The translations under genes were made by a program, and so were the position numbers. A DNA stretch of 64,000 bases from an uncultured bacterium (GTDB taxonomy: Bacteria > Babelota > Babeliae > Babelales > Vermiphilaceae), in the NCBI GenBank assembly GCA_963695335.1, contig OY968764.1, positions 224,001 through 288,000 on the forward strand. Reading direction: 5' to 3'. The first letter of the stretch is position 1. Every line of letters starts with the position of its first letter. This document shows positions 49,187 through 61,271 of the stretch, in pieces. The notes beneath the pieces are model-generated. The model saw nothing but the letters and a program-made list of their open reading frames with translations, had not been told where the DNA came from and searched no databases.

Positions 49187-50668
49187 TTAATCTTTTTTAG
49201 ACAAAAACCTATTCGATGGCACGCCTCTATGAACATGTATCGGCACCAACGTACGCACATATTCATTACGGTTTTTGCACAAATATGATTGCCCAATAGC
49301 ATCACATGCAAAACCAAGATATTTCAGCACTTCTGGATTTACAACATTACGTGCATCAACAATAATTGGGTAATGCATCACTTTTTTTAAACGTGCAAAA
49401 TCAATCTGTCTAATTTCATCCCAATCAGTCATAATAATAACCGCATCTACATCCATTGCTGCTTTGTAAGGAGAAGATGCGTACTCAATATCAGGAAATA
49501 TCATACGCATATTGTCTGTTGCAACGGGATCATACGCCACAACGTTTGCACCGAGCTCTTGTAACAGTTCAATTGTTCTAATAGAAGGAGAATAACGAAC
49601 ATCGTCCGTGCCTGCTTTAAATGCTAATCCAAGTACAGCAACTGTTTTGCCTTCTAGATCTTCTTGTAATTCTCTTGCCATAAGATTTTCTAATTTTTCA
49701 ACAGCTTTACCTTGTTGCTTTTCATTAACATCAAGAGCTGCTTTAACCGTATAAAATGGTAAATGGTGTTTTCCTGCAATATGCACTATTGCTTGAGAAT
49801 CTTTTGGAAAACAAGAGCCACCAAAACCAGGCCCTGGATTTAAGAATGCGGGACTTATACGGTGATCAAGCCCCATAGCATATGCAACTGTTTTAACATC
49901 AGCATCTGTTGCATCACATAAATTAGCAATTTCATTAATATAACTAATTTTTACTGATAAAAAGGCATTGGATGCATATTTAGTCATTTCCGCAGTTTGC
50001 ACATTAGTTAAAACATACGGAACACCACTTGCAATGAGTGATTCATACACTTCACACAAGGCAATAAGTGCTATATCAGAATCAGTTCCAATCACTAAGC
50101 GATCTGGATACAAAAAATCTCTTACTGCAAGGCCTTCACGCAAAAATTCAGGATTAGACACAACGCTAAACATCTGTGGATCTATACCATATGTATTTTC
50201 TAATTGAGCTCGTATACCTTTGCCAGTTCCAACCGGAACGGTGCTTTTGGTAACAATAATTTTGTAAGAATTCATATTTTCTGCAATCATTCTTACAACA
50301 CCATCTACATATGATAAATTTGCGCTCCCATCTGCTCCCATAGGAGTTCCAACAGCAATAAAAATAATGTCACCAAGTGCTATAGCTTCAGCAACATTAT
50401 CAGTAAACATCAATCGCCCTGCATCAACATTGCGTTCAACCACTTCACTTAAGCCCGCCTCATAAATTGGCATAATTCCATTGTTTAACATCTCTATTTT
50501 CCGCGAATCAATATCAGCACAGATCACTGAATTGCCAATTTCTGCAAGACAAGCACCAGAAACAAGACCTACATATCCTGTACCAATAATGGTAACAATT
50601 CTATCACTCTGAGCTTGCAAAAACATTGATACACACAAAATTTGCGCCATAACAATTTTACGCAACAT
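49187..50668 (-). CDS. ugd: UDP-glucose 6-dehydrogenase with signal-peptide-like N-terminal extension
   Basis: IIGTGYVGL, AVGTP, KSTVPVGT, NPEFLREG, GFGGSCFPKD; AAGGAG RBS before MLRKIVMAQILCVSMFLQA. Confidence 0.93.
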   Translation of the reverse strand: MLRKIVMAQILCVSMFLQAQSDRIVTIIGTGYVGLVSGACLAEIGNSVICADIDSRKIEMLNNGIMPIYEAGLSEVVERNVDAGRLMFTDNVAEAIALGDIIFIAVGTPMGADGSANLSYVDGVVRMIAENMNSYKIIVTKSTVPVGTGKGIRAQLENTYGIDPQMFSVVSNPEFLREGLAVRDFLYPDRLVIGTDSDIALIALCEVYESLIASGVPYVLTNVQTAEMTKYASNAFLSVKISYINEIANLCDATDADVKTVAYAMGLDHRISPAFLNPGPGFGGSCFPKDSQAIVHIAGKHHLPFYTVKAALDVNEKQQGKAVEKLENLMARELQEDLEGKTVAVLGLAFKAGTDDVRYSPSIRTIELLQELGANVVAYDPVATDNMRMIFPDIEYASSPYKAAMDVDAVIIMTDWDEIRQIDFARLKKVMHYPIIVDARNVVNPEVLKYLGFACDAIGQSYLCKNRNEYVRTLVPIHVHRGVPSNRFLSKKD

Positions 50669-50832
50669 AACAATCTCCTTTTTTAAATAAACTTTCATAC
50701 AAAACATAGAATATTTTTTCCATCGTTGTATAGATTTGTTTCATAAGATCAGCAACTATTGGGTTTTTTGATAAAATTTGCTACGGTGTTGTGTAATCGT
50801 CAGCAATGTCGTTTTTAAAAAAGGAAATGATA

Positions 50833-52356
50833 ATGAATTATATTAAAATAATAACAGTATTGCTCTTGTGTCTTAGTCACAATATCTTCTCATCAACCTC
50901 TCCAGAAAGAAAATCAACTGAACTCCCATTTGTTATTGTCGTCTGTTCTTATAATAATGATCAATGGTCAGAAACCACACTTACATCACTTTTCACTCAA
51001 AATTATACAAATTTTCGTGTTATCATTGTTGATGACTGTTCATCAGATAATAATTGTGAAGTAATCGAACAATGCATCGATAAACATAATTTTAGTGATC
51101 GAGTTACTTTTATCAAAAATGAACAACGTCATCGGAAGTTGTTTAATTTGTATCGCGTACTTTATGAATGTAACGATAATGAAATTGTTTTAATGGTGGA
51201 TGGCGATGATTGGCTCATCGATGAAAATGTACTTTCATTTTTCAACAACATTTATGCTGATGACGGTATATGGTTTACCTATGGACAATATCGCAATGTC
51301 CCAGCTTCTCAAGCTATCCAATGGGGACACAAAGAGATGGGATATTGTCGACCTGTTCCCAAACATGTTCAACGTCAACAAGCCTACCGTTACTACAGCT
51401 TTATTTATATGCATCCACGTACCTTCCGTGCATGGTTATTCAAACTCGTGAAACTAGAAGATCTTATCGCAGATAAAATTGAAGGTTTTGAGGGGAATTT
51501 TTATCCTGCAAGCAATGATGTTGCTATGTATTTTCCCATGGTAGAAATGGCCCATACGCATATTAAATTTATCCCCGATATTCTGTATATCAGAAATCTT
51601 TACTCAGAAATTGTTGGTTTTAAAGTTGATCGTCGTCTGCAAACAACTTCTGCCCGTGAAATCAGGAAAAAAAAATGTTACCAAGTACTCTTCCAGGCTA
51701 AAAAAAACAGACTCAATTCCGTACAAAAAGCTCTCACTGACACCTTTTTACTGTGTCGTTATAATTTAACAGATATTCAAACCACGCTCACAAATCTCCA
51801 GAATAATACTACCAATCTTGGATCAATCTATGTTTTCTTCCATAACACAGAAGATAATAAAAAAATATGCCGCTTTATTAAAAAAGATTTCCCTGACGTA
51901 ATTTTTGTTCCTTATGACACAAATGGTAATAAAGCGTTAAAAAATCGACTTTTAGACTATATAAGCTTATGCAAAAATGATCATATTCTTGTGCTGACCG
52001 ACTCATGTTCTATTTTAAAACCATTAGATCTTTCTTATTACATCTTTTGGCTTGAAAAAACATATGCGTATCGTTTTTACCTGGGCAGATCTTCACTTGA
52101 TAAGGCAGCTCCATTCTACATCACTCTCAATGATGATATATGCGCATGGAAAAACCCTCCCGGCACAGACACCTGGAAGGGTTTATCAATAGGCGATGAT
52201 GCATTTATTTGTCGCAAAACAACGCTTTATAAAGAAATTAAGGATTTAAATTTCAACAATACATACGGACTTTTAAAAGGAATGATGCTTTCATCATCAC
52301 AATCAGCACGTGTTGGTTTATTTTTAAAGAATGAAACAATTAAGATTGGTGCTTAG
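50833..52356 (+). CDS. GT2 glycosyltransferase with signal peptide and a second degenerate GT-like domain
   Basis: FVIVVCSYN, IIVDDCSSD, VDGDDW. Confidence 0.85.
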   Translation: MNYIKIITVLLLCLSHNIFSSTSPERKSTELPFVIVVCSYNNDQWSETTLTSLFTQNYTNFRVIIVDDCSSDNNCEVIEQCIDKHNFSDRVTFIKNEQRHRKLFNLYRVLYECNDNEIVLMVDGDDWLIDENVLSFFNNIYADDGIWFTYGQYRNVPASQAIQWGHKEMGYCRPVPKHVQRQQAYRYYSFIYMHPRTFRAWLFKLVKLEDLIADKIEGFEGNFYPASNDVAMYFPMVEMAHTHIKFIPDILYIRNLYSEIVGFKVDRRLQTTSAREIRKKKCYQVLFQAKKNRLNSVQKALTDTFLLCRYNLTDIQTTLTNLQNNTTNLGSIYVFFHNTEDNKKICRFIKKDFPDVIFVPYDTNGNKALKNRLLDYISLCKNDHILVLTDSCSILKPLDLSYYIFWLEKTYAYRFYLGRSSLDKAAPFYITLNDDICAWKNPPGTDTWKGLSIGDDAFICRKTTLYKEIKDLNFNNTYGLLKGMMLSSSQSARVGLFLKNETIKIGA

Positions 52357-53095
52357 ACGAATTTTTTCTTTTACGCACCACTTTACGCACATATACAAGC
52401 TGAGCTATTTTATTCTTTATGCCTTTTGTCCAATTAGCATGATGCATCATAATGCCATGCGGCACTGGTAAGCGCATTCCTGGAGACCACTCATGACCTG
52501 TTAGAGTACCTCCTCCAAAAAATGTATTTGGTAAATAGCCCCACACTACGTTATAGGGATTTGTTTTGCTATGTCTTTTTATGCAACGATTTAATGAATT
52601 TTGATCACTATTTAATTTATCTTTTTGCATTGTTAATTTTACATCTTGCCACAATTGCAACGTTTTTTCATTCGCTCGGCATGCAAAAAAACCTGAACAA
52701 AGTACTCCATTTGGTGAATTTTTTTGAATCATCAAATCTTTATTTTTCATCAATTTTAAAATTGTCGCTTTAATTGGAGAAAAAAATTGAATATCAACAT
52801 CTGAAAAAATAAAAATTGAACCCCAGTTTTCCTGAATTGCACGAATAATCAAATCTACTTTGCGTATGGTTGTATCTGTCCAACCTTCATCCATAAATTT
52901 TGCCGATAGACATGTTTGTTCAGAAAATTCAAAAATAATATCAAAATCATCTTTAATAGAAGGTAAAAAGAATTGATCTTTTAACTGCTCATGAGATGGA
53001 GTATACAAAGCATATAGTTTCATTTTTTCTTGAGCTACTATATGCAAAAAACAAAAAACAAAAATAAAATTACATATCATTAAACATTTTTTCAT
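52340..53095 (-). CDS. Nucleotide-diphospho-sugar transferase (GT77-like) with signal peptide
   Basis: FIFSDVDI, CSGFF, DQNSLN, HHANW..G..NK. Confidence 0.75.
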   Translation of the reverse strand: MKKCLMICNFIFVFCFLHIVAQEKMKLYALYTPSHEQLKDQFFLPSIKDDFDIIFEFSEQTCLSAKFMDEGWTDTTIRKVDLIIRAIQENWGSIFIFSDVDIQFFSPIKATILKLMKNKDLMIQKNSPNGVLCSGFFACRANEKTLQLWQDVKLTMQKDKLNSDQNSLNRCIKRHSKTNPYNVVWGYLPNTFFGGGTLTGHEWSPGMRLPVPHGIMMHHANWTKGIKNKIAQLVYVRKVVRKRKNSSKHQS

Positions 53096-53161
53096 TACAA
53101 CTCCTTTTTAAATAACTGTACTTTGTATTATGCTTACCACAGTTATAAAAAAAGGACACTC

Positions 53162-54091
53162 ATGAAAAATTTTTTTTTTACATTAACACTCTTTTCAATA
53201 ACGGTTTTGCATACTGCAAAGCCCACAACCAGCGCAATAACCTGGGAACCAAATGGAGGTAGATTTGGTGACAATCTCCTTTCTTATTCGCGTGCAAAGT
53301 GGCTTTCTTACAAATTCAATATCCCTGTTCTTTATCTGCCATTCAAATACTCTGATGAACTCATGATGTATGAACAAGAAGCTATGTATACACAAGAATT
53401 GGCACAACAATTTGCATATATTATCAGAATTCCAAGTCTAAAAAGATATCAGCTCCTACCAGACAACAACACTTTGTACATTAGCCATTGGTATGCAGAT
53501 GTAACCATTGATTGGTTTGATATTCCTTTTATAGAAGATCTCAAAGCAAATATTTATCCTCGTAATCCAATTGAAAAAGTGTCCATTCCTGAAAATTGTG
53601 TATCTATAGCTGCTCATGTCAGAAATGGTGGCGCATTTGCCGCTGACACACAACAAGAAAAAGATCGTTGCCCATTACGATTTGTTCCCGATGAGTTTTT
53701 TATTGATCAAATAGCTCGTATTGCCGGCATGTTCCCTGAACAAAACTTGTATGTATATATCTTTACCGATCATCAAGAACCTGCTTTATTAAAAAAAAAA
53801 TTTAAAAAGGCACTCAATAATCCACGCATTACTTTTGACTATAGAAAACAAGACAATGCTCACAATGCCAACGTTTTAGAAGACTTTTTTTCTATGATGG
53901 ATTTTGATTGTCTGATTCGTCCTGGATCACATTTTTCACGTTTTGTGCAACGTCTCGGTCGCAATAAGCTCGTTATTTATCCAGAAAGTGTTAAAAAAAT
54001 TGACGGAAAGCCTGTTATAAATGTAATTAATATAAAAAAGCGCAATAATCCCGGAGAGCGCTGGAAAACAAAAAAAGTAACTATTTTATAA
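53162..54091 (+). CDS. GT11-like (alpha-1,2-fucosyltransferase-like) protein with signal peptide
   Basis: GGRFGDNL, AHVRNG, IFTD, EDF..M, SHFS. Confidence 0.7.
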   Translation: MKNFFFTLTLFSITVLHTAKPTTSAITWEPNGGRFGDNLLSYSRAKWLSYKFNIPVLYLPFKYSDELMMYEQEAMYTQELAQQFAYIIRIPSLKRYQLLPDNNTLYISHWYADVTIDWFDIPFIEDLKANIYPRNPIEKVSIPENCVSIAAHVRNGGAFAADTQQEKDRCPLRFVPDEFFIDQIARIAGMFPEQNLYVYIFTDHQEPALLKKKFKKALNNPRITFDYRKQDNAHNANVLEDFFSMMDFDCLIRPGSHFSRFVQRLGRNKLVIYPESVKKIDGKPVINVINIKKRNNPGERWKTKKVTIL

Positions 54092-54772
54092 CTTCTGCAC
54101 TTCAATATTCCTTATACCATCATCACCTTGCACAATCTCAAAATAGTAGCCTGGTGCATATGTCATTACAAGCTCTTTATCATGAGATATAATCAATACA
54201 GTTATATTAAGCTCCTGAGCAAGCTTTTGGATACATTGCATTACTATATGCGCATTTTTTGGATCAAGTGCAGCTGTTGGTTCATCAAGCAAAAGTAACT
54301 TTGTGGGTTTTTGCGATGCCATAACAATAGCCAAAATCTGTTTTTGACCACCTGACAGTTCATCAATTGTTTTATTACTGTCAATGCTAAAATCTTTTAA
54401 TACAGAAAGATTTTGCGCTTCAGGTAAATCTTGCAAACCTGGATGCCGTAGCAAGTTAACACATTGCATATTCTGTAACACAGAAAATTGTGGCGCTATC
54501 ATTTCATTAATATCTTGCACTACTATGGTAACATCCTGATCTTTCATTTTTTGCCCATCAATCATAAAATCACCAGTTAATCGAGCATTGTGAGGAATAG
54601 CCCCTTGCAAAATATTAAAAAAAGTTGATTTACCCGAGCCATTTTTTCCCTGTAAAAAGTTAAGTTTACCAGGCAAACAATGTAATGAGACATCTTTAAA
54701 AAATAAGTTCTGTTGTGGAGAGAAAGCAAAACTCATATGTTGAACACGCAAACCTTTTATTGTTTCTGACAT
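54086..54772 (-). CDS. ABC transporter ATPase
   Basis: GKNGSGKST, LSGGQ, LLLLDEPTAALD, ISH. Confidence 0.92.
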   Translation of the reverse strand: MSETIKGLRVQHMSFAFSPQQNLFFKDVSLHCLPGKLNFLQGKNGSGKSTFFNILQGAIPHNARLTGDFMIDGQKMKDQDVTIVVQDINEMIAPQFSVLQNMQCVNLLRHPGLQDLPEAQNLSVLKDFSIDSNKTIDELSGGQKQILAIVMASQKPTKLLLLDEPTAALDPKNAHIVMQCIQKLAQELNITVLIISHDKELVMTYAPGYYFEIVQGDDGIRNIEVQKL

Positions 54773-54774
54773 AG

Positions 54775-55662
54775 TTATACCCCCAAATGATCAATATGTT
54801 TTTTAGTTTGTTTGCGGTATGTCAACACCAAAATACATAACGTCACAAGCGCTTGTACGGTTGTAAAATATTTTAAATTAAACCCAACTTTTAAAAGTAA
54901 TTGCTGTAATGCAAAATATGCACAACAACCAACTAAAGGCATTGCTATAACAATAGGATGTTTTGATCGCACAATAACTTTTCCAAGAATAAGAGATGTA
55001 ATACATAAAAGCGCTTTTCCAAAACCCATGGTGATATCAGCAAAACCATTCGATTGCGCAAATAAATAACCACTTAACCCTGCAAGTGCATTACTCAACA
55101 CAACTCCTGTAATAAAAACATAGGGAACAGAAATACCATAATGTCTTAAAAAATGAGAATTGTTACCATACAAAGCAAATGCATAACCAAGTTGTTTTTT
55201 GAATAGTATATATAGCCCAACACTAACAATAATTGCAATAAACATGAGCGTCACCATTTCTGGATGACGCTCTATTACATTATATATCAAAGGATTTTGA
55301 TATACACTTAATGATATGTAACTACCTGCTATTAATTGATTAACACCATAAAAAACACCAAACGTAATAATGCTCGAAAGTAAATGTGGCAACCCTGCAT
55401 ATTGCGTTAACATACTTGATGTAATTCCCACTATTGCACCGCCAAACAAACTTGCAATAACAACAATTGGTAACTGCATACTCACCGGTAATGCATCAGT
55501 GCATGCAATAGCATACGCACCTATAATTGCACCAGAAACATACGCACTTTCTATACTCAAATCAGGTAATTTCATTAATGAAATAGTGATATATGCTCCA
55601 AGAAGTAAAGGCACATGCATTAAACATTGTTCCATTACAATCAATAACATATCTACATTCAT
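54775..55662 (-). CDS. ABC transporter permease (TrpY-like)
   Basis: PDLSIESAY..G, LLSSI, SNALAGLSG.L.AQ..GFAD..MG.G. Confidence 0.85.
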   Translation of the reverse strand: MNVDMLLIVMEQCLMHVPLLLGAYITISLMKLPDLSIESAYVSGAIIGAYAIACTDALPVSMQLPIVVIASLFGGAIVGITSSMLTQYAGLPHLLSSIITFGVFYGVNQLIAGSYISLSVYQNPLIYNVIERHPEMVTLMFIAIIVSVGLYILFKKQLGYAFALYGNNSHFLRHYGISVPYVFITGVVLSNALAGLSGYLFAQSNGFADITMGFGKALLCITSLILGKVIVRSKHPIVIAMPLVGCCAYFALQQLLLKVGFNLKYFTTVQALVTLCILVLTYRKQTKKHIDHLGV

Positions 55663-56660
55663 ATAATAATAACTCCCTCTTTTTGCAATTGAGCTAATCT
55701 TTCTTTACTCAGATGTAAACCTTGTTGCTCCATCGTTTTTGTATTTATCTTCAGATATAGCTTTTCTAACGGAAGTACGGCAATAGAAGCTGGTGATTCT
55801 TTATCCTCAAGAATACGATGGGCTAACTGAGCACCCAAAACACCATAATCAGCTTGCTGTACTCCAAATGATAATGCTGCTCCTTTATCTCCTGAATTAA
55901 GCTCAGATGTAAATAGTGTCACTCCATAACGCCCACATAATAAAATTAAACTATCAACACCCGCAACCGTTGTATGATCTGTTAAAATCATTAATACATC
56001 AACATCAGTTAAAAAGTGTGGCACTTTTTGCGCTATTTCATTTTGATGCGCAACAGTAACGATACGTAAGCTAATATTTTTTTCTTTCAAAATTTTCTCA
56101 AGTTTTCCAGATTTTTTCTCCAAATGTCCTTGCGCAGGATTATATACTAACAATACTGTTTTTATATTCGGTTTTATATGTAAAAGAGCATGTATTTGTT
56201 GCTCATAATCATCTTCATCATTAGTACCTGTTACCATACCTCCTGGATGAGCAAGTGACGCAATAATCCCCATCGCCACAGGATTATCAACCGCAGTAAA
56301 AACTTGTGGCGTTTTTGATTGTCTTTTTTGAGACAGTTCAAAAATAGATTGCGAACATTGTGCACCAATAGTAAATACTAAATCATAATTATGTTGCACT
56401 ATTTCATCCGCTTGCGCACGGAGTAACGTGGCATTACCATTGGCATTATATTCATCAAATGAATATTTTTTATCACTCCCACTATGTATAGTGTCTTTAA
56501 ATCCATTCATAATATCTGTCATTGATGGATGCACCGCTGGTGCAAATAAAGCAATGCGATAATCACTCAATGCTGAACGGTTTCGTTGCAATACAATTTC
56601 TGCACCTATCAACACAACTAAACATACAGCAACAGCAATACATATCTGTTTTTTATTCAT
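55659..56660 (-). CDS. ABC substrate-binding protein (ABC_sub_bind / TrpX-like, aromatic amino acids)
   Basis: HPSM, NANG, PQVFTAVDNPV..G, PGG.VTG, YNP, TDHT. Confidence 0.82.
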   Translation of the reverse strand: MNKKQICIAVAVCLVVLIGAEIVLQRNRSALSDYRIALFAPAVHPSMTDIMNGFKDTIHSGSDKKYSFDEYNANGNATLLRAQADEIVQHNYDLVFTIGAQCSQSIFELSQKRQSKTPQVFTAVDNPVAMGIIASLAHPGGMVTGTNDEDDYEQQIHALLHIKPNIKTVLLVYNPAQGHLEKKSGKLEKILKEKNISLRIVTVAHQNEIAQKVPHFLTDVDVLMILTDHTTVAGVDSLILLCGRYGVTLFTSELNSGDKGAALSFGVQQADYGVLGAQLAHRILEDKESPASIAVLPLEKLYLKINTKTMEQQGLHLSKERLAQLQKEGVIII

Positions 56661-57876
56661 AATATTCCCTTGAATACATAGTTACACAAAAATTTTTCAA
56701 AAAATTGACCATAATGTTTTTTCCTTGAATTAAATCAACAATTGGCAAAGATTCATTAGTTTCATGAAGAGCGCTTTGAGTAGTAAACGGAGTAAAACCA
56801 ACTCCATCCAAACCTAACGCTCTGTAGTATCTTAAATCAGTTGATCCTTCAAAAAAGAGTGGTTGCGGCTGCATACCATAGTTATGCACTGTTTGTGCAA
56901 GCACATTATACAATGGTGTACAATAATCATCACCCATTTCATAATCAGGCACAGTAGCATGAATTATATAGCTACTATTTGTATACCCACGCAGTATATC
57001 TTCAATAAAATGTATTATTTTATTCATCTTCATTGTTGGAGGAACACGTATATCAATAGTAGCCGACGCCTTTTCTGGCACTATATTTAATGATGTTTTG
57101 TTATTACTAATCACACCTGCTGTTACTGATGTAATATTCATAGAAAGTAACAAACCATCAGCCTGAGTAATACTTTTTTGCTGTTGCATAGCGTGATGCT
57201 TTACCAATGTATGCAAAATAGTTGTTAACTCGTGAATTGCATTAAAGCAGTTAAGTTTAGAGCCATGAGCAAGAGATCCCTTTGTTATAATCTCTATCTG
57301 TATTGGCTTACGTTCAGAAACTTTAATTGCAATGGTATTTGATTGCCCTGAAGAAACTCCTTCATCAAGGACAAATTGCGCATTCATATGTGCAAAACAA
57401 TCTGTTTGTATAAACTGCCGTGTCCCAGTAAATCCACCAACCTCTTCATCAGGCACTACGACAAAATGAATTGTATGTCGTGGCTGCACACCAGCATCTT
57501 TAAGCGCTTTTAATGCAAAATAGCATGCAACTCCTACCCCTTTCATATCTTGCACACCACGACCAATAATAACATCATCAACTATAGCGCCTTCAAAAGG
57601 ACCCGCTAACCATTCCTTTTCATTTAATGCAGGAACAACATCCATATGATGATTAAGTATCAATGATGGTAATAAAAGATCTTTTCCCTCATACGTAACA
57701 ACAATAACCGGATGACCAGAAGGAAGCATAACTTTTTGATATTTAAAACCATCTTGTTCCGCTTGCACCTGAAAGAGTGAGCAAACAGATTCATAATCAG
57801 GATTTGGTTGAGCAGTATTAATCCTCAAATATCGCTGTAAAAATGAAATCATATCCCTTTCCATATGATTTTTCAT
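56653..57876 (-). CDS. M20 aminoacylase, eukaryotic ACY1-like
   Basis: YLRINT.QPNPDY, LNHHMDVVP, GRGVQDMK, VPDEEVGG, LDEG, GSTD.RY.R, LH..NE. Confidence 0.85.
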   Translation of the reverse strand: MKNHMERDMISFLQRYLRINTAQPNPDYESVCSLFQVQAEQDGFKYQKVMLPSGHPVIVVTYEGKDLLLPSLILNHHMDVVPALNEKEWLAGPFEGAIVDDVIIGRGVQDMKGVGVACYFALKALKDAGVQPRHTIHFVVVPDEEVGGFTGTRQFIQTDCFAHMNAQFVLDEGVSSGQSNTIAIKVSERKPIQIEIITKGSLAHGSKLNCFNAIHELTTILHTLVKHHAMQQQKSITQADGLLLSMNITSVTAGVISNNKTSLNIVPEKASATIDIRVPPTMKMNKIIHFIEDILRGYTNSSYIIHATVPDYEMGDDYCTPLYNVLAQTVHNYGMQPQPLFFEGSTDLRYYRALGLDGVGFTPFTTQSALHETNESLPIVDLIQGKNIMVNFLKNFCVTMYSREYYE

Positions 57877-58661
57877 TTCTTAATGAATGAAAACAGTAAC
57901 ACATTACCGTATCCTGGAATTGATTGATCATCTGGTAATGGCTTACATTCACTGTCTTCTGGATCAAAAGTAGGCATAAATGCTTGATAACGACTGTGAT
58001 ACAGATCAATGTCTTCGTTACAGTTACATTCAATAGCAACTTGTTGGGCAAACGCTCTAAACGCGCGTATAATTGATGGAGTTCGATCTATTCCATCAGA
58101 TGTTTCACCTGAATTTGCTTTGGTAAGTCCGTACAATAGTACAATGTTGTGCGCCTTTTTAGTTTGCACAGCTTTTATAACATCATCTTTTATGTCTTCA
58201 AGTGTATGTCGAATAAGACGAGAATTTATCCCCTGATGCCGATAATGTGGGACTGTATAATCACCACCAAAATAGATACTGACACTATCCTTAAAAGTAA
58301 ACGATGGCATCATACTATTTTTATCATGACAACGTATTTCATTCTGAGTAATATCATCGTATTCATTTTCATCATTAATAATGAAAAGCTTTTTAAAAGC
58401 AATTATTCCATCCGATCCTTCTTTTGTAACACAATACAATCTGTTTTTAACAATATCACCCTCAAGAGCTCCTTGTCTAAACTTTTTAGGCAAAATAACT
58501 ATTTTGGTACTATCATTGATAGCCTGCTCATCAATCACCTTCAGCAAAGAGTTGACATCAGATTGAGTAGCTTTTTTATATATCAAAGCTGGTTCCATAG
58601 CAACAGTTGTGATACATACTAAGGGTAAAAAACAATTGATTACATACGTAATTAATTTCAT
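57873..58661 (-). CDS. GNAT-fold acetyltransferase with signal peptide
   Basis: Motif A YTVPHYRHQGINSRLI; signal ..TTVA|MEP; AAGGA RBS. Confidence 0.7.
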   Translation of the reverse strand: MKLITYVINCFLPLVCITTVAMEPALIYKKATQSDVNSLLKVIDEQAINDSTKIVILPKKFRQGALEGDIVKNRLYCVTKEGSDGIIAFKKLFIINDENEYDDITQNEIRCHDKNSMMPSFTFKDSVSIYFGGDYTVPHYRHQGINSRLIRHTLEDIKDDVIKAVQTKKAHNIVLLYGLTKANSGETSDGIDRTPSIIRAFRAFAQQVAIECNCNEDIDLYHSRYQAFMPTFDPEDSECKPLPDDQSIPGYGNVLLFSFIKK

Positions 58662-58778
58662 ATAAAATCCTTGTAAAAAAATTAAATTAAACACATTGCC
58701 AATAGCAAGAGACCATCGGCATATCTTGAAATTATTAAATGGAAATAGAGAGAAAATGTAATTAAAGGAAAAAAAAGA

Positions 58779-58838
58779 TTAGCGCCACCAGCGCCAAGAA
58801 AGAAGAAGAGTTTGCGTGCAAGATTTTGTTTGAATCAT
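58779..58838 (-). promoter_or_regulatory. Trp-rich leader peptide / attenuator (MIQTKSCTQTLLLSWRWWR*)
   Basis: 3 TGG among the last 5 codons; hairpin TTGGCGC-TGGTG-GCGCTAA followed by TCTTTTTTTT; in-frame ATGs extend up to 58898. Confidence 0.72.
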
Positions 58839-58935
58839 ACAGTTCAATGACATGCTTTGTGCAGTAGTCATAGAAAAAGAAATCATATGAAATCCCATAA
58901 TTAAGGGGGTTGAACAAAATACCTTACTAATAATA

Positions 58936-58964
58936 ACAATACTGTAGGTTATTCACCTTGTCAA
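58936..58964 (-). promoter_or_regulatory. Sigma70-type promoter for leader and operon
   Basis: TTGACA-17 nt-TATTGT. Confidence 0.65.
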
Positions 58965-58993: not shown

Positions 58994-59659
58994 TCAGCGA
59001 TTGCGGGCTAGAAAGAGTGCATTGCCAAAAAAAGATTGTATAGTATCAGCAAAATCGCGTCCAACAAGGTCAAATCTATGCTCTGCCATCCAAGCAACCA
59101 CATCTTCATATAACGGCTGTCCCTCATAACTTTCTATAAAAGATACCTCCGCCAACACTACCTTGATATTGTGAATCATTTGGGGTGCTGCCTGCAAAAT
59201 GGTAAGTTCATGACCTTGTGTGTCAAGCCAAAGCAAATCGATCATCTTAACTCCATTTTCATCCGCCCATTGATCAAGTGTGATGGTATGCACAGTTGCC
59301 ATCCGAGGAAAAATTATTGGAGACCGGGATAAACGTTCTTTTGGTTTATGCAAAGACCCTGCTTGAGAAGCAATGCCAGGCTTAGTTGGTTTTTCTGAAA
59401 TATAAAACTCAGCAGTTCCGGTGTGATCGCTTAACGCCACTGGATACCTGTGAACATTGGGCAACATACTTGTATTTTTCACGAGTCGATCAAAAATTTC
59501 TGGCACCGGCTCAAAAGCATGAACTGTACATTGCGGCCATTGTGATACCATTTTTTTTGTATCATGACCATCAAAAGCTCCTGCTTCTACAATCACCGGA
59601 TTGTCAGGTAAAAATTGCTGTATTACTTCTATGGTTTTATAGGAATTGAATATAATCAT
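58994..59659 (-). CDS. FkbM-family methyltransferase
   Basis: VEAGAFDG, AFEP, TLD, LWLDTQGHEL. Confidence 0.88.
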   Translation of the reverse strand: MIIFNSYKTIEVIQQFLPDNPVIVEAGAFDGHDTKKMVSQWPQCTVHAFEPVPEIFDRLVKNTSMLPNVHRYPVALSDHTGTAEFYISEKPTKPGIASQAGSLHKPKERLSRSPIIFPRMATVHTITLDQWADENGVKMIDLLWLDTQGHELTILQAAPQMIHNIKVVLAEVSFIESYEGQPLYEDVVAWMAEHRFDLVGRDFADTIQSFFGNALFLARNR

Positions 59660-59755
59660 AATTTTTTAAGTAAATTTTCTTCTTTATAAAAATATATTTA
59701 TCAATTATAGTAACCCTGTTCATTAAGAATTTATACAAAAAAAAGAAAGGGTTCT

Positions 59756-60301
59756 ATGTTCAGTGTATCTAAAAAATCAATTTTATTATCAATCATTTTT
59801 TTTACAGCTTCTAATATACAATGCAGTGAACCTCAAAGAGCCACAATAACAGGTACTCTACAAATTAAATCTAACGACATCTCAGAACAAGAAACTTCCC
59901 ATGCATGGAAAATGATGACTCTTTTTGGACCAGCTATTGTTACTTGGGCACTAACTCAAGCCGTTCAAAAATATTATGAAGATCCCGAGATATCTACCAA
60001 CAATAAAGAACTTAAAAAAACTGAACTTGAGCTTAAAAAAATTGAGTTAGAAACAAAAAAACACCCTGATTATCCTACAATTAGTTTACAGCTTAAAAAA
60101 AATAAAGCCGAAGAAAAAAGTCTTATTAATAGAGAAAAACAACTCGAATTAGAGTTCAAAAATGGTCAATTAATGGAACATTATGAAGAGAGATTAGATC
60201 ATTTTAGAAAATGCGATGAGCCTCTTACGCAAGATTACTGTAATAATATGACCAAAATATACCAAAAAAGAGTAGAAAGACTTACTGAGTTAAAATCATA
60301 A
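59756..60301 (+). CDS. Secreted or membrane coiled-coil hypothetical protein
   Basis: Signal ..IQC|SEP; central hydrophobic patch; K/E helix. Confidence 0.65.
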   Translation: MFSVSKKSILLSIIFFTASNIQCSEPQRATITGTLQIKSNDISEQETSHAWKMMTLFGPAIVTWALTQAVQKYYEDPEISTNNKELKKTELELKKIELETKKHPDYPTISLQLKKNKAEEKSLINREKQLELEFKNGQLMEHYEERLDHFRKCDEPLTQDYCNNMTKIYQKRVERLTELKS

Positions 60302-60407
60302 GGCAAACAAATTTTCCCTCTTTTTTCTCACTTTTATGATAAACTATATATATACTTGACATTAAAATCCCAAAAATCTTACAATAACCCCTAGTAAAAG
60401 GAATGCT

Positions 60408-61271
60408 ATGAAACATCCTTTTTTGACCATAGCCTTTGTTGTATCTTCATGCATTGTTGCTTTATTCGCTTTTAGATGCACACAAGAGCTGTTTCAAAAG
60501 AAAAAAGAGAGTAAATCTATAAACAAAGATGTGAACAATATGAAACTCAGTATTGTTATTCCCGCATATAATGAAGCAAATCGGATAGAAAGAACCCTAC
60601 GAACATATCATGAATATTTTGCAGCAAAACATATGCCTTTTGAATTGGTTGTAGTATTAAATGGTTGCAAAGATAATACTATTGGTGTTGTTGAACGCGT
60701 ACGCAAAGATCTTGCAACTAATACCATAGTGATCATTGATCTACCACAAGCAGGAAAAGGCCTTGCTATTAAAGCAGGTTTTGCTGATGCGCTTACCAGA
60801 AATAATGATTTAATTGGCTTTGTTGATGCTGATATGGCAACAAAACCTGAAGCATATGATGATCTTATTGCTAATATTGGTGACAATGACGGTATTATTG
60901 CAAGCCGTTACATGCCTGGCGCACAAATTTCTCCACCACGCCCTGCATACAAACGTTATGGAAGTAGATTAGTATACGACCCGTTAAAATGGCTACTTTT
61001 TGGTTTATCATATTACGATACCCAGTGCGGTGCAAAGCTGTTCAAACGAGCAACTTTAGAGACCGTTAATCCACAATTAACAGTCGCTCAATGGGCTTTT
61101 GATGCTGAATTGTTATATCTATGCAAAAAAGCTGGTTACACTGTCATAGAAATTCCAACAGTCTGGGAAGATCAAGCTGAAAGTAAACTCACCCTTAAAG
61201 GTGGCATACGCATGATTAGTTCTCTATTCCAAGCGCGATGGCAACATTTTTGGTCAAAGAAAAAAGCATAA
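60408..61271 (+). CDS. GT2 polyprenol-phosphate glycosyltransferase (DPG-synthase-like)
   Basis: LSIVIPAYNE, GKG.A, FVDAD, DTQCGAK, WAFDAELL; N-terminal TM. Confidence 0.88.
   Translation: MKHPFLTIAFVVSSCIVALFAFRCTQELFQKKKESKSINKDVNNMKLSIVIPAYNEANRIERTLRTYHEYFAAKHMPFELVVVLNGCKDNTIGVVERVRKDLATNTIVIIDLPQAGKGLAIKAGFADALTRNNDLIGFVDADMATKPEAYDDLIANIGDNDGIIASRYMPGAQISPPRPAYKRYGSRLVYDPLKWLLFGLSYYDTQCGAKLFKRATLETVNPQLTVAQWAFDAELLYLCKKAGYTVIEIPTVWEDQAESKLTLKGGIRMISSLFQARWQHFWSKKKA

Follow-up and report, generated by a model that had tools for sequence, protein, structure and literature searches.

The described systems closest to the operon analysed here are the TrpXYZ importer of Streptococcus suis and the binding proteins SP1069 (PDB 3LFT), VC_1101 (3LKV), and CD0873 (6HNI). 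The operon lies on the minus strand of a 64,000-nucleotide (nt) stretch of DNA (contig OY968764.1 of assembly GCA_963695335.1, positions 224,001 to 288,000; hereafter the window) from an uncultured bacterium of the Babelota (Vermiphilaceae), whose genome consists of a single contig of 1.37 Mb and is 94% complete. It has in common with the S. suis system and its relatives the binding-protein family, the order of the permease and ATPase genes of the ATP-binding cassette (ABC) transporter, a predicted control by tryptophan (Trp) starvation, and a Gln at the Trp-selectivity site. It differs in that identity is only ∼20–25% and the score falls below the TrpX cut-off, in that a leader peptide takes the place of the T-box, and in that genes for a GNAT-type acyltransferase and an aminoacylase are added.

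A previous interpretation made from the DNA alone (the sequence-only reading) had seen in this operon a Trp-scavenging system, in which the exported GNAT would acetylate host Trp and thus withdraw it from the host, the ABC system would import it, and the aminoacylase would restore free Trp. What was observed there is confirmed, and the interpretation is partly supported: the operon appears to be a real Trp-starvation-linked uptake system made of known parts, for which masking of Trp is a credible but unproven mechanism.

Trp leader, Trp depletion, and the importer

The leader open reading frame (ORF; 58779..58898, minus strand) comprises 39 codons when started at 58898, or 35 when started at 58886 (an ATG following GGGA), with the stop codon at 58781–58779. 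As reported in the sequence-only reading, the peptide ends in SWRWWR*, its Trp codons being located at 58796–58794, 58790–58788, and 58787–58785. The binding protein of the operon matched in 96 of 261 genomes, and all 58 loci with E < 1e-40 (window included) were retrieved; adding two stand-alone pairs of the GNAT and the aminoacylase (an M20 family member) and removing five loci with less than 200 nt of upstream sequence gave 55 loci for the leader comparison. A paralogue, L107, was left out of the locus comparison. Across these Dependentiae loci, an ATG-started ORF with Trp in the last six codons was present in 45/55, versus 24/341 control upstream regions (other upstream regions of the genome carrying the window, the operon's own locus counted in), the counts coming from related, non-independent genomes whose leaders share no sequence except the Trp end. 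In a further five of the 55, the Trp-ending ORF starts with GTG or TTG. L049, which is among the 45, had been judged by a wrong short ORF, its real leader lying farther upstream, as do those of L048, L057, L083, and L092; the region upstream of L013 is, by our reading, transposase-like sequence. Of seven distant paralogous loci, two gave a positive result as well. In genome G002, the leader contains a 60-nt insertion that preserves the frame, and stand-alone GNAT-M20 pairs were preceded by a Trp leader in 12 of 13 evaluable cases. No obvious leader for another amino acid was found among 22 candidates in the genome carrying the window. The Trp leader is beyond chance and widespread in the phylum.

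The five operon proteins together contain a single Trp in 1,525 residues, versus ∼14 expected (binomial P 8e-6), and the Trp density of the operon is the lowest of 1,199 gene runs in the genome. Relative to the proteome level, the Trp content of the orthologues was 0.06 (GNAT), 0.04 (binding protein), 0.10 (permease), 0.05 (ATPase), and 0.28 (M20, whose orthologues keep one conserved Trp), and no comparable drop was observed for Phe and Tyr in the same families (ratios 0.66–1.52). Paralogous permeases have a normal Trp content (1.2%). Paralogous binding proteins (0.13%) and ATPases (0.24%) are also rather poor in Trp, and depletion in these two families is, therefore, partly background. Proteins that are synthesised while an amino acid is scarce are expected to contain little of it (PMC4209129). 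Leader and depletion together tie the GNAT and the M20 enzyme, and not the importer alone, to Trp shortage.

The core of the operon encodes a binding protein (56660–55659, minus; Pfam PF04392, ABC_sub_bind) with an N-terminal anchor, a TrpY-like permease (55662–54775, minus; PF02653, BPD_transp_2), and a TrpZ-like ATPase (54772–54086, minus; PF00005, ABC_tran), which is a TrpXYZ-type gene set. The score of the binding protein against the TrpX equivalog NF041285 was 141.5 bits, below the cut-off of 390. Its only solved relatives are 3LKV, 3LFT, and 6HNI, which bind Phe, Trp, and Tyr, respectively, the selectivity site being occupied by Gln in the Trp binder and by Tyr in the others, according to PMC6816091. 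The corresponding position (Q284 of SP1069, Q273 of TrpX) is Gln269 here; across 49 aligned binding proteins, it is Gln, Glu, Ser, or Asn and in no case Tyr; the position of the Glu that contacts the Tyr hydroxyl is also acidic in the window's protein. According to PMC9382623, the ligand backbone is bound in TrpX by T108, A127, T129, D152, and N233. The equivalents of A127 and D152 are kept, whereas those of T108, T129, and N233 are Ala100, Asp125, and His229, and the D152 column is variable across the phylum. As judged from these residues, the pocket would be Trp-leaning but not diagnostic. The claim of a TrpX-type importer is borne out by the gene set and Gln269, the score remaining under the TrpX cut-off; a TrpXYZ-type core is well supported, and it would bind and import Trp. 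One family of genomes (G054, G158–G162) stands out by having no fewer than eight distant ABC_sub_bind copies per genome.

Intracellular bacteria are known to be vulnerable to a shortage of Trp. TrpA was found in none of the 189 good genomes (1/261 when all were counted). The phylum-wide leader, the Trp-depleted families, the Trp-type selectivity residue, and the absence of TrpA lend strong support to the Trp-linked control and Trp scavenging already proposed in the sequence-only reading, and the importer is very probably controlled by Trp starvation. The operon would serve an intracellular parasite that is auxotrophic for Trp in acquiring this amino acid, its expression being switched on as charged tRNA-Trp runs low.

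Transcription control behind the leader

Classical attenuators of the trpL type likewise contain tandem Trp codons in a leader ORF. They differ from the leaders considered here, where the codons are located at the very end of the ORF (2–5 codons before the stop, mostly within a small hairpin between U/C-rich, G-poor RNA), no antiterminator was detected, and an Rfam search of the window's leader, T-box included, yielded no match at E up to 1. In the window, the hairpin (58779..58797, minus) consists of 8 bp made of the Trp, Arg, and stop codons, with a run of 8 U behind it. An untranslated U/C-rich, G-poor tract (58735..58778, minus) is a candidate Rho loading site, and a second hairpin (58697..58721, minus; z −4.3) a candidate pause or termination site; the pairing of the latter is, by our reading of the alignment, largely retained in G002 and G005. 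Folding of the window's own leader revealed no mutually exclusive antiterminator and terminator, and the duplex z across leaders was ∼−0.1 both upstream and downstream, with 1 and 2 of 49 leaders below −2. A classical terminator/antiterminator attenuator is ruled out by the absence of antiterminator pairing, which the sequence-only reading had missed, and a T-box riboswitch by the lack of an Rfam match.

A second hairpin downstream is enriched (z < −2 in 17/49 leaders), the downstream region having the appearance of an intrinsic terminator in only 5/49. The pyrimidine fraction in the 40 nt past the stop codon reaches at least 0.7 in 33/50 leaders versus 14/341 controls, and Rho is present in 189/189 good genomes. 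Because no antiterminator exists in the leader, attenuation of the Rho type is the most likely mechanism, and the odds are moderately in favour of it controlling the operon. When Trp is plentiful, the ribosome would complete the leader, the naked U/C-rich RNA would be exposed, and Rho could load and terminate transcription before the first gene. Upon Trp starvation, ribosomes would stall at the terminal Trp codons and mask the tract, so that transcription reads through.

Such a mechanism has described counterparts in tnaC and speFL of E. coli and cruR of Bordetella, Rho attenuators that depend on an upstream ORF (PMC12360218). They and the leaders considered here resemble each other in the short ORF, the sensing point at its end, the polypyrimidine tract behind it, the lack of an alternative hairpin, and the presence of Rho. 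A difference is that tnaC responds to abundant Trp via an arrest peptide, whereas the leaders here must respond to its shortage, and their peptide is unconserved except for the terminal Trp codons. Leaders of mycobacterial cys genes, for which Rho attenuation was predicted (PMC1262725), would be of the same type as proposed here. In predicted actinobacterial ilvB leaders, the regulatory codons form a hairpin, as the Trp codons do here, but ilvB1 of Mycobacterium is described in PMC13236596 as a terminator-antiterminator switch, unlike the leader in the window.

With regard to regulation only, the Trp-codon hairpin and its U run could instead constitute an intrinsic terminator under direct control of the ribosome, without participation of Rho. 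Besides the 8-bp hairpin and the 8 U at this locus, it is in favour of this notion that at least 6 T within 8 nt occur within 20 nt of the stop codon in 31/50 leaders, and that the base after TGG is C in 57/85 cases, which is a constraint at the RNA level. However, the hairpins often have only 4–5 bp and outperform synonymous recoding (p ≤ 0.05) in only 8/50 leaders, which, although Arg following Trp is encoded by CGN in 35/35 cases, makes the RNA-level constraint on the hairpin a modest one, and the missing pairing upstream and downstream speaks against an intrinsic terminator as well. Furthermore, by the usual geometry, a ribosome would not reach codons inside the terminator before the polymerase passes the U run. 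Control without Rho is, thus, unlikely.

The GNAT-M20 module

The first gene of the operon (58661–57873, minus) encodes a protein of 262 amino acids (aa) with a signal peptide and no Trp. Its identity as GNAT, as claimed in the sequence-only reading, was substantiated by its structure: despite a sub-threshold match in Pfam (E 0.097) and the lack of a named family in Pfam or NCBIfam, the structure model (pLDDT 92.8) has a clearly GNAT-type predicted fold, the best match of the fold search having Z 13.9 and a root-mean-square deviation of 3.1 over 157 aligned positions, and all 50 matches listed being of the GNAT type. EctA, N-terminal acetyltransferases, and small-molecule acetyltransferases score close together at the top of these model-based matches. 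With EctA (6SK1), Naa10/Ard1/Naa60, phosphinothricin acetyltransferases, and ArgA-type enzymes, the protein has in common the GNAT fold, Arg141 in the loop binding coenzyme A (CoA), and Asn183 after β5; it differs by an identity of 7–16%, three conserved insertions, and the signal peptide. Among 172 aligned sequences of the family (318 representatives), Arg141 is conserved in 99% and Asn183 in 96%; compared with the R/Q-x-x-G-x-G/A pattern of the CoA pyrophosphate loop, R141 is thus nearly invariant, position 144 is Gly in 71% (Lys or Arg in 21%), and the last position is Asn in 88%. A hydrophobic N-terminus, by which signal peptides and anchors were judged throughout, is present in 152 of the 172. 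Neither the fold nor language-model neighbours, which were generic GNATs only, allowed a substrate to be assigned. The genome carrying the window contains no paralogue of this family; three of its four other GNAT genes (G000:C1:406862-407428, 843014-843619, and 867583-868593) start with a hydrophobic signal-like segment.

The second gene (57876–56653, minus) encodes an M20 protein of 407 aa without N-terminal anchor. It scored 251 bits against TIGR01880 (aminoacylase 1), below the cut-off of 338.6, which was reached in none of the 34 matching genomes, and 170 against ArgE/DapE; its best PDB match was human ACY1 (E 2e-34; ACY1 structure 1Q7L). H77, D110, E144, E145, E172, H204, N264, R277, D347, and H371 are invariant in 28 M20 sequences, and by analogy with human ACY1 (aligned over the N-terminal half), we take them to be metal ligands and catalytic residues. 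Eukaryotic ACY1 is, thus, the closest relative by family, structure, and kept motifs; the enzyme here differs in being bacterial, sub-cut-off, and in also existing in a membrane-anchored form. The best hits hint at a possible origin by transfer from eukaryotes. The assignment as a cytoplasmic ACY1-type aminoacylase made in the sequence-only reading holds, its activity being predicted, and those of the M20 and ABC genes in general were confirmed by Pfam and NCBIfam. The five genes are tightly coupled on the minus strand as described before, with overlaps of 4 nt (GNAT/M20), 8 nt (M20/binding protein), and 4 nt (binding protein/permease) and a gap of 2 nt between permease and ATPase.

Across Dependentiae, gene order is shuffled among loci, and both enzymes are encoded at 15 of the 58 importer loci, the GNAT only at two, M20 only at one, and neither at the remainder. 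In L048 and L049 (G002 and G005), promoter, leader, and importer stay, while the GNAT is reduced to a stub and M20 is gone; the module was recently lost there. Conversely, 14 genomes contain the pair without a co-directional importer, 13 of them also lacking an orthologous binding protein. All 32 genomes with an ACY1-like M20 also carry the GNAT, the genes being adjacent in 30, with one exception located at contig ends. A hydrophobic N-terminal extension of M20 is present in 14/14 stand-alone pairs versus 0/16 evaluable ABC-linked ones (in L114 it was read from a non-ATG start; L099, scripted as solo, was counted as ABC-linked because a co-directional importer lies ∼2 kb upstream; L088 and L120 were not judged). 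On the M20 tree (a quick method with 32 rows, L113 being left out as frameshifted and eukaryotic sequences being absent), the anchor state changes approximately three times, two of the changes being forced by strong branches. As M20 is anchored when the importer is unlinked, the simplest reading is that its substrate comes from outside the cell; it would probably be cleaved in the cytoplasm if there is a linked importer and on the cell surface if there is none.

Twelve genomes with a substantial GNAT match lack an ACY1-like M20; the locus was retrieved for seven of them. Three (L124:2655-5375, L126, and L127:4025-8013) combine the GNAT with another M20, of the ArgE/DapE type, and with a membrane protein of the YitT type; a Trp leader is present in two of the three, and in L127 two PQ-loop proteins follow GNAT, M20, and YitT. 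The other four comprise one lone GNAT under a leader, two without leader, and one next to a binding protein where the contig ends. GNAT and M20 form an accessory mobile module, which also occurs alone under the same leader and which the sequence-only reading had missed. In a genome scan for the range outside the phylum, at least 80 loci matched; of these 80, five had 43–49% identity and the rest were distant and mostly partial, a result that does not establish absence elsewhere. Homologues are labelled Candidatus Dependentiae, TM6, or Babeliales, and the organism would accordingly be a protist parasite of this phylum; one homologue is labelled Parachlamydiaceae but nests among the sequences of the phylum.

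Proposed masking of host Trp and its alternatives

That the two enzymes act jointly, as the sequence-only reading had proposed, is indirectly supported by their co-occurrence in all genomes with M20 and by the anchor switch of M20, but not by the pocket of the binding protein, which does not change with the module; overall, it is rather likely that both act on the same N-acyl compound. In the complete scheme, the exported GNAT would N-acylate, probably acetylate, the α-amine of Trp with host acyl-CoA, yielding an N-acyl-Trp unusable for the charging of host tRNA, and M20 would deacylate this compound. An ABC-linked M20, as here, would do so on imported material in the cytoplasm, and one with a membrane anchor and no linked ABC system at the cell surface. 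Such capping and reclaiming, predicted from gene content, falls just short of even odds. We assign a probability of roughly 0.4 to the wider reading that these parasites privatise host Trp in a siderophore-like manner, masking it and reclaiming it with a eukaryote-type aminoacylase, under a phylum-wide attenuator that lacks an antiterminator.

Masking requires that the GNAT leaves the periplasm and meets acetyl-CoA. The genome carrying the window encodes two secretins, and the signal of the GNAT ends in a motif common to 9/17 ankyrin-like proteins; in a cultured relative, 44% of the proteins have signals and secreted effectors were proposed (10.1101/379388). Searches of the genome yielded no pyruvate dehydrogenase E1 (the hit obtained is a transketolase) and neither PFOR, CoaE, nor acetate kinase, and acyl-CoA for the GNAT, therefore, probably comes from the host. 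All of this evidence is circumstantial. The only AMP-binding enzyme found, which is acyl-CoA ligase-like (L208:1408-2773), is split over two frames in the assembly.

Several observations weigh against masking. Forty of the 58 importer loci encode neither enzyme, 12 of the 44 genomes with the GNAT do without an ACY1-like M20, and in G258 no leader was seen for an anchored pair, which has an ABC operon of opposite orientation as its neighbour. The signal peptide of the GNAT indicates export to the periplasm only, and a hydrophobic N-terminus is present in 584 of 1,203 predicted proteins of the genome. The predicted fold ties between acetyltransferases for small molecules and for protein N-termini. 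An adaptation of the pocket to N-acyl-Trp was rejected, as no alignment column separates the 16 GNAT/M20-linked binding proteins from the 33 unlinked ones, and the retained equivalents of A127 and D152 do not make import of an N-blocked ligand evident. Finally, mammalian ACY1 prefers aliphatic N-acetyl amino acids, the aromatic ones being left to ACY3, according to PMC13445479.

In one rival reading, the enzymes would have separate tasks, M20 recovering Trp from host N-acyl-Trp, the ABC system importing free Trp, and the co-induced GNAT acting on another amine; it could, for example, inactivate analogues of Trp, or indole amines, which under starvation rival Trp for uptake or as ligands of tryptophanyl-tRNA synthetase. 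The unchanged pockets, the genomes containing the GNAT without ACY1-like M20 (in one case a solitary gene behind a Trp leader), and an operon whose oxidase, closest to N-methyl-L-tryptophan oxidase, would represent pure salvage of N-blocked Trp all conform to such a division of labour. Pure salvage, however, does not need the GNAT, without which M20 never occurs in a genome, and in mammalian studies few N-acetyl amino acids are observed less often than N-acetyl-Trp (PMC13445479). This possibility is, thus, doubtful.

Alternatively, the GNAT could be an effector directed at host macromolecules, Trp-tRNA or protein N-termini, with M20 reclaiming the released N-acetyl amino acid. Naa10, Ard1, Naa60, and NatC tie for the best match to the predicted fold (Z 12.1–12.8), the conserved basic residues R62, K90, K91, R110, and R193 could bind RNA or a carboxylate, the motif at the end of the signal is common to 9/17 ankyrin-like proteins, and the genome encodes two secretins. 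An effector is nevertheless improbable: no tRNA-acetylating GNAT toxin of the TacT/AtaT type was among the matches listed in either fold search, and N-terminal Trp is rare in proteins, so acetylation of proteins would yield little of it. Least probable is a one-way path in the periplasm or vacuole, in which the GNAT caps the N-termini of short peptides and M20 releases Trp as carboxy- or dipeptidase, because, even though both proteins are exported in stand-alone pairs and the M20 family includes such peptidases, ABC-linked M20 is cytoplasmic while the GNAT stays exported, and aminoacylase 1 is well ahead of peptidases as family and structure match.

If masking of host Trp is true, it would be a way of competing with the host for an amino acid of which no description was found. 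At least, for protist parasites of a phylum about which little beyond genome sequences is known, the operon reveals an amino acid-sensing control element and a specific route of nutrient uptake, as well as an unnamed family of exported GNATs that is tied to Trp supply by two independent genomic signals; the anchored and the cytoplasmic aminoacylases can be compared as a natural experiment on the place at which the enzyme meets its substrate. Full-text literature searches, whose scope included few subscription journals and no supplements, returned no description of such a leader for this phylum, nor of a GNAT combined with an aminoacylase and an importer.

Other enzymes also occur next to Trp-leader importers. 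In G041, a Trp-leader ABC operon begins with the gene for a Trp-free flavoenzyme (L079:7329-8483, minus). The best match of this enzyme is N-methyl-L-tryptophan oxidase, with 243 bits at a cut-off of 257, and its score for sarcosine oxidase is nearly equal. No secreted methyltransferase partner was seen for it, and the oxidase family is present in 3/261 genomes. The binding protein of G020 and of G173 has as its neighbour a protein with a signal peptide that belongs to the Trp/Tyr isonitrile synthase family. Together, the oxidase and isonitrile cases, one or two each, suggest chemistry at the α-amine of Trp. Isonitrile synthase-like genes (DIT1/PvcA; L054:6981-8084, minus, L057:7952-9157, plus, and L213–L242) were found in 12/261 genomes, mostly as tandem pairs of exported proteins and in some cases beside amino acid ABC genes, two of them being those next to the Trp-leader binding protein; in L231 (G093) and L232 (G027), Trp-ending short ORFs and pyrimidine tracts precede them away from an importer. 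Trp-leader ABC operons at L069:4842-6555 (plus), L095:7346-9111 (plus), and L092:7558-8845 (minus) contain a second, nearly Trp-free exported pair of unknown family, one member with a signal peptide and the other with an N-terminal anchor, the copies in L069 and L095 being homologous. A YbaK/ProX-type aminoacyl-tRNA editing gene immediately follows the ABC ATPase at L091:4235-4747 and L094:4103-4591 (both minus).

The sigma-70-type promoter candidate of the operon (58936..58964, minus) is present as previously claimed, with TTGACA (58964–58959) and TATTGT (58941–58936) spaced by 17 nt, but such sites occurred at chance level in a promoter scan (27 found versus 27.9 expected), so that the site alone is no support. 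The −35 element is identical in the two close relatives G002 and G005, and TATTGT is kept in G005 only. The surroundings of the operon (49187–54091 and 58994–61271) contain genes of glycan modification, among them a nucleotide-sugar transferase and an FkbM methyltransferase (by Pfam) and, by our reading of the ORF list, ORFs resembling UDP-glucose dehydrogenase and glycosyltransferases. The ABC ATPase gene overlaps its convergent neighbour by 6 nt.

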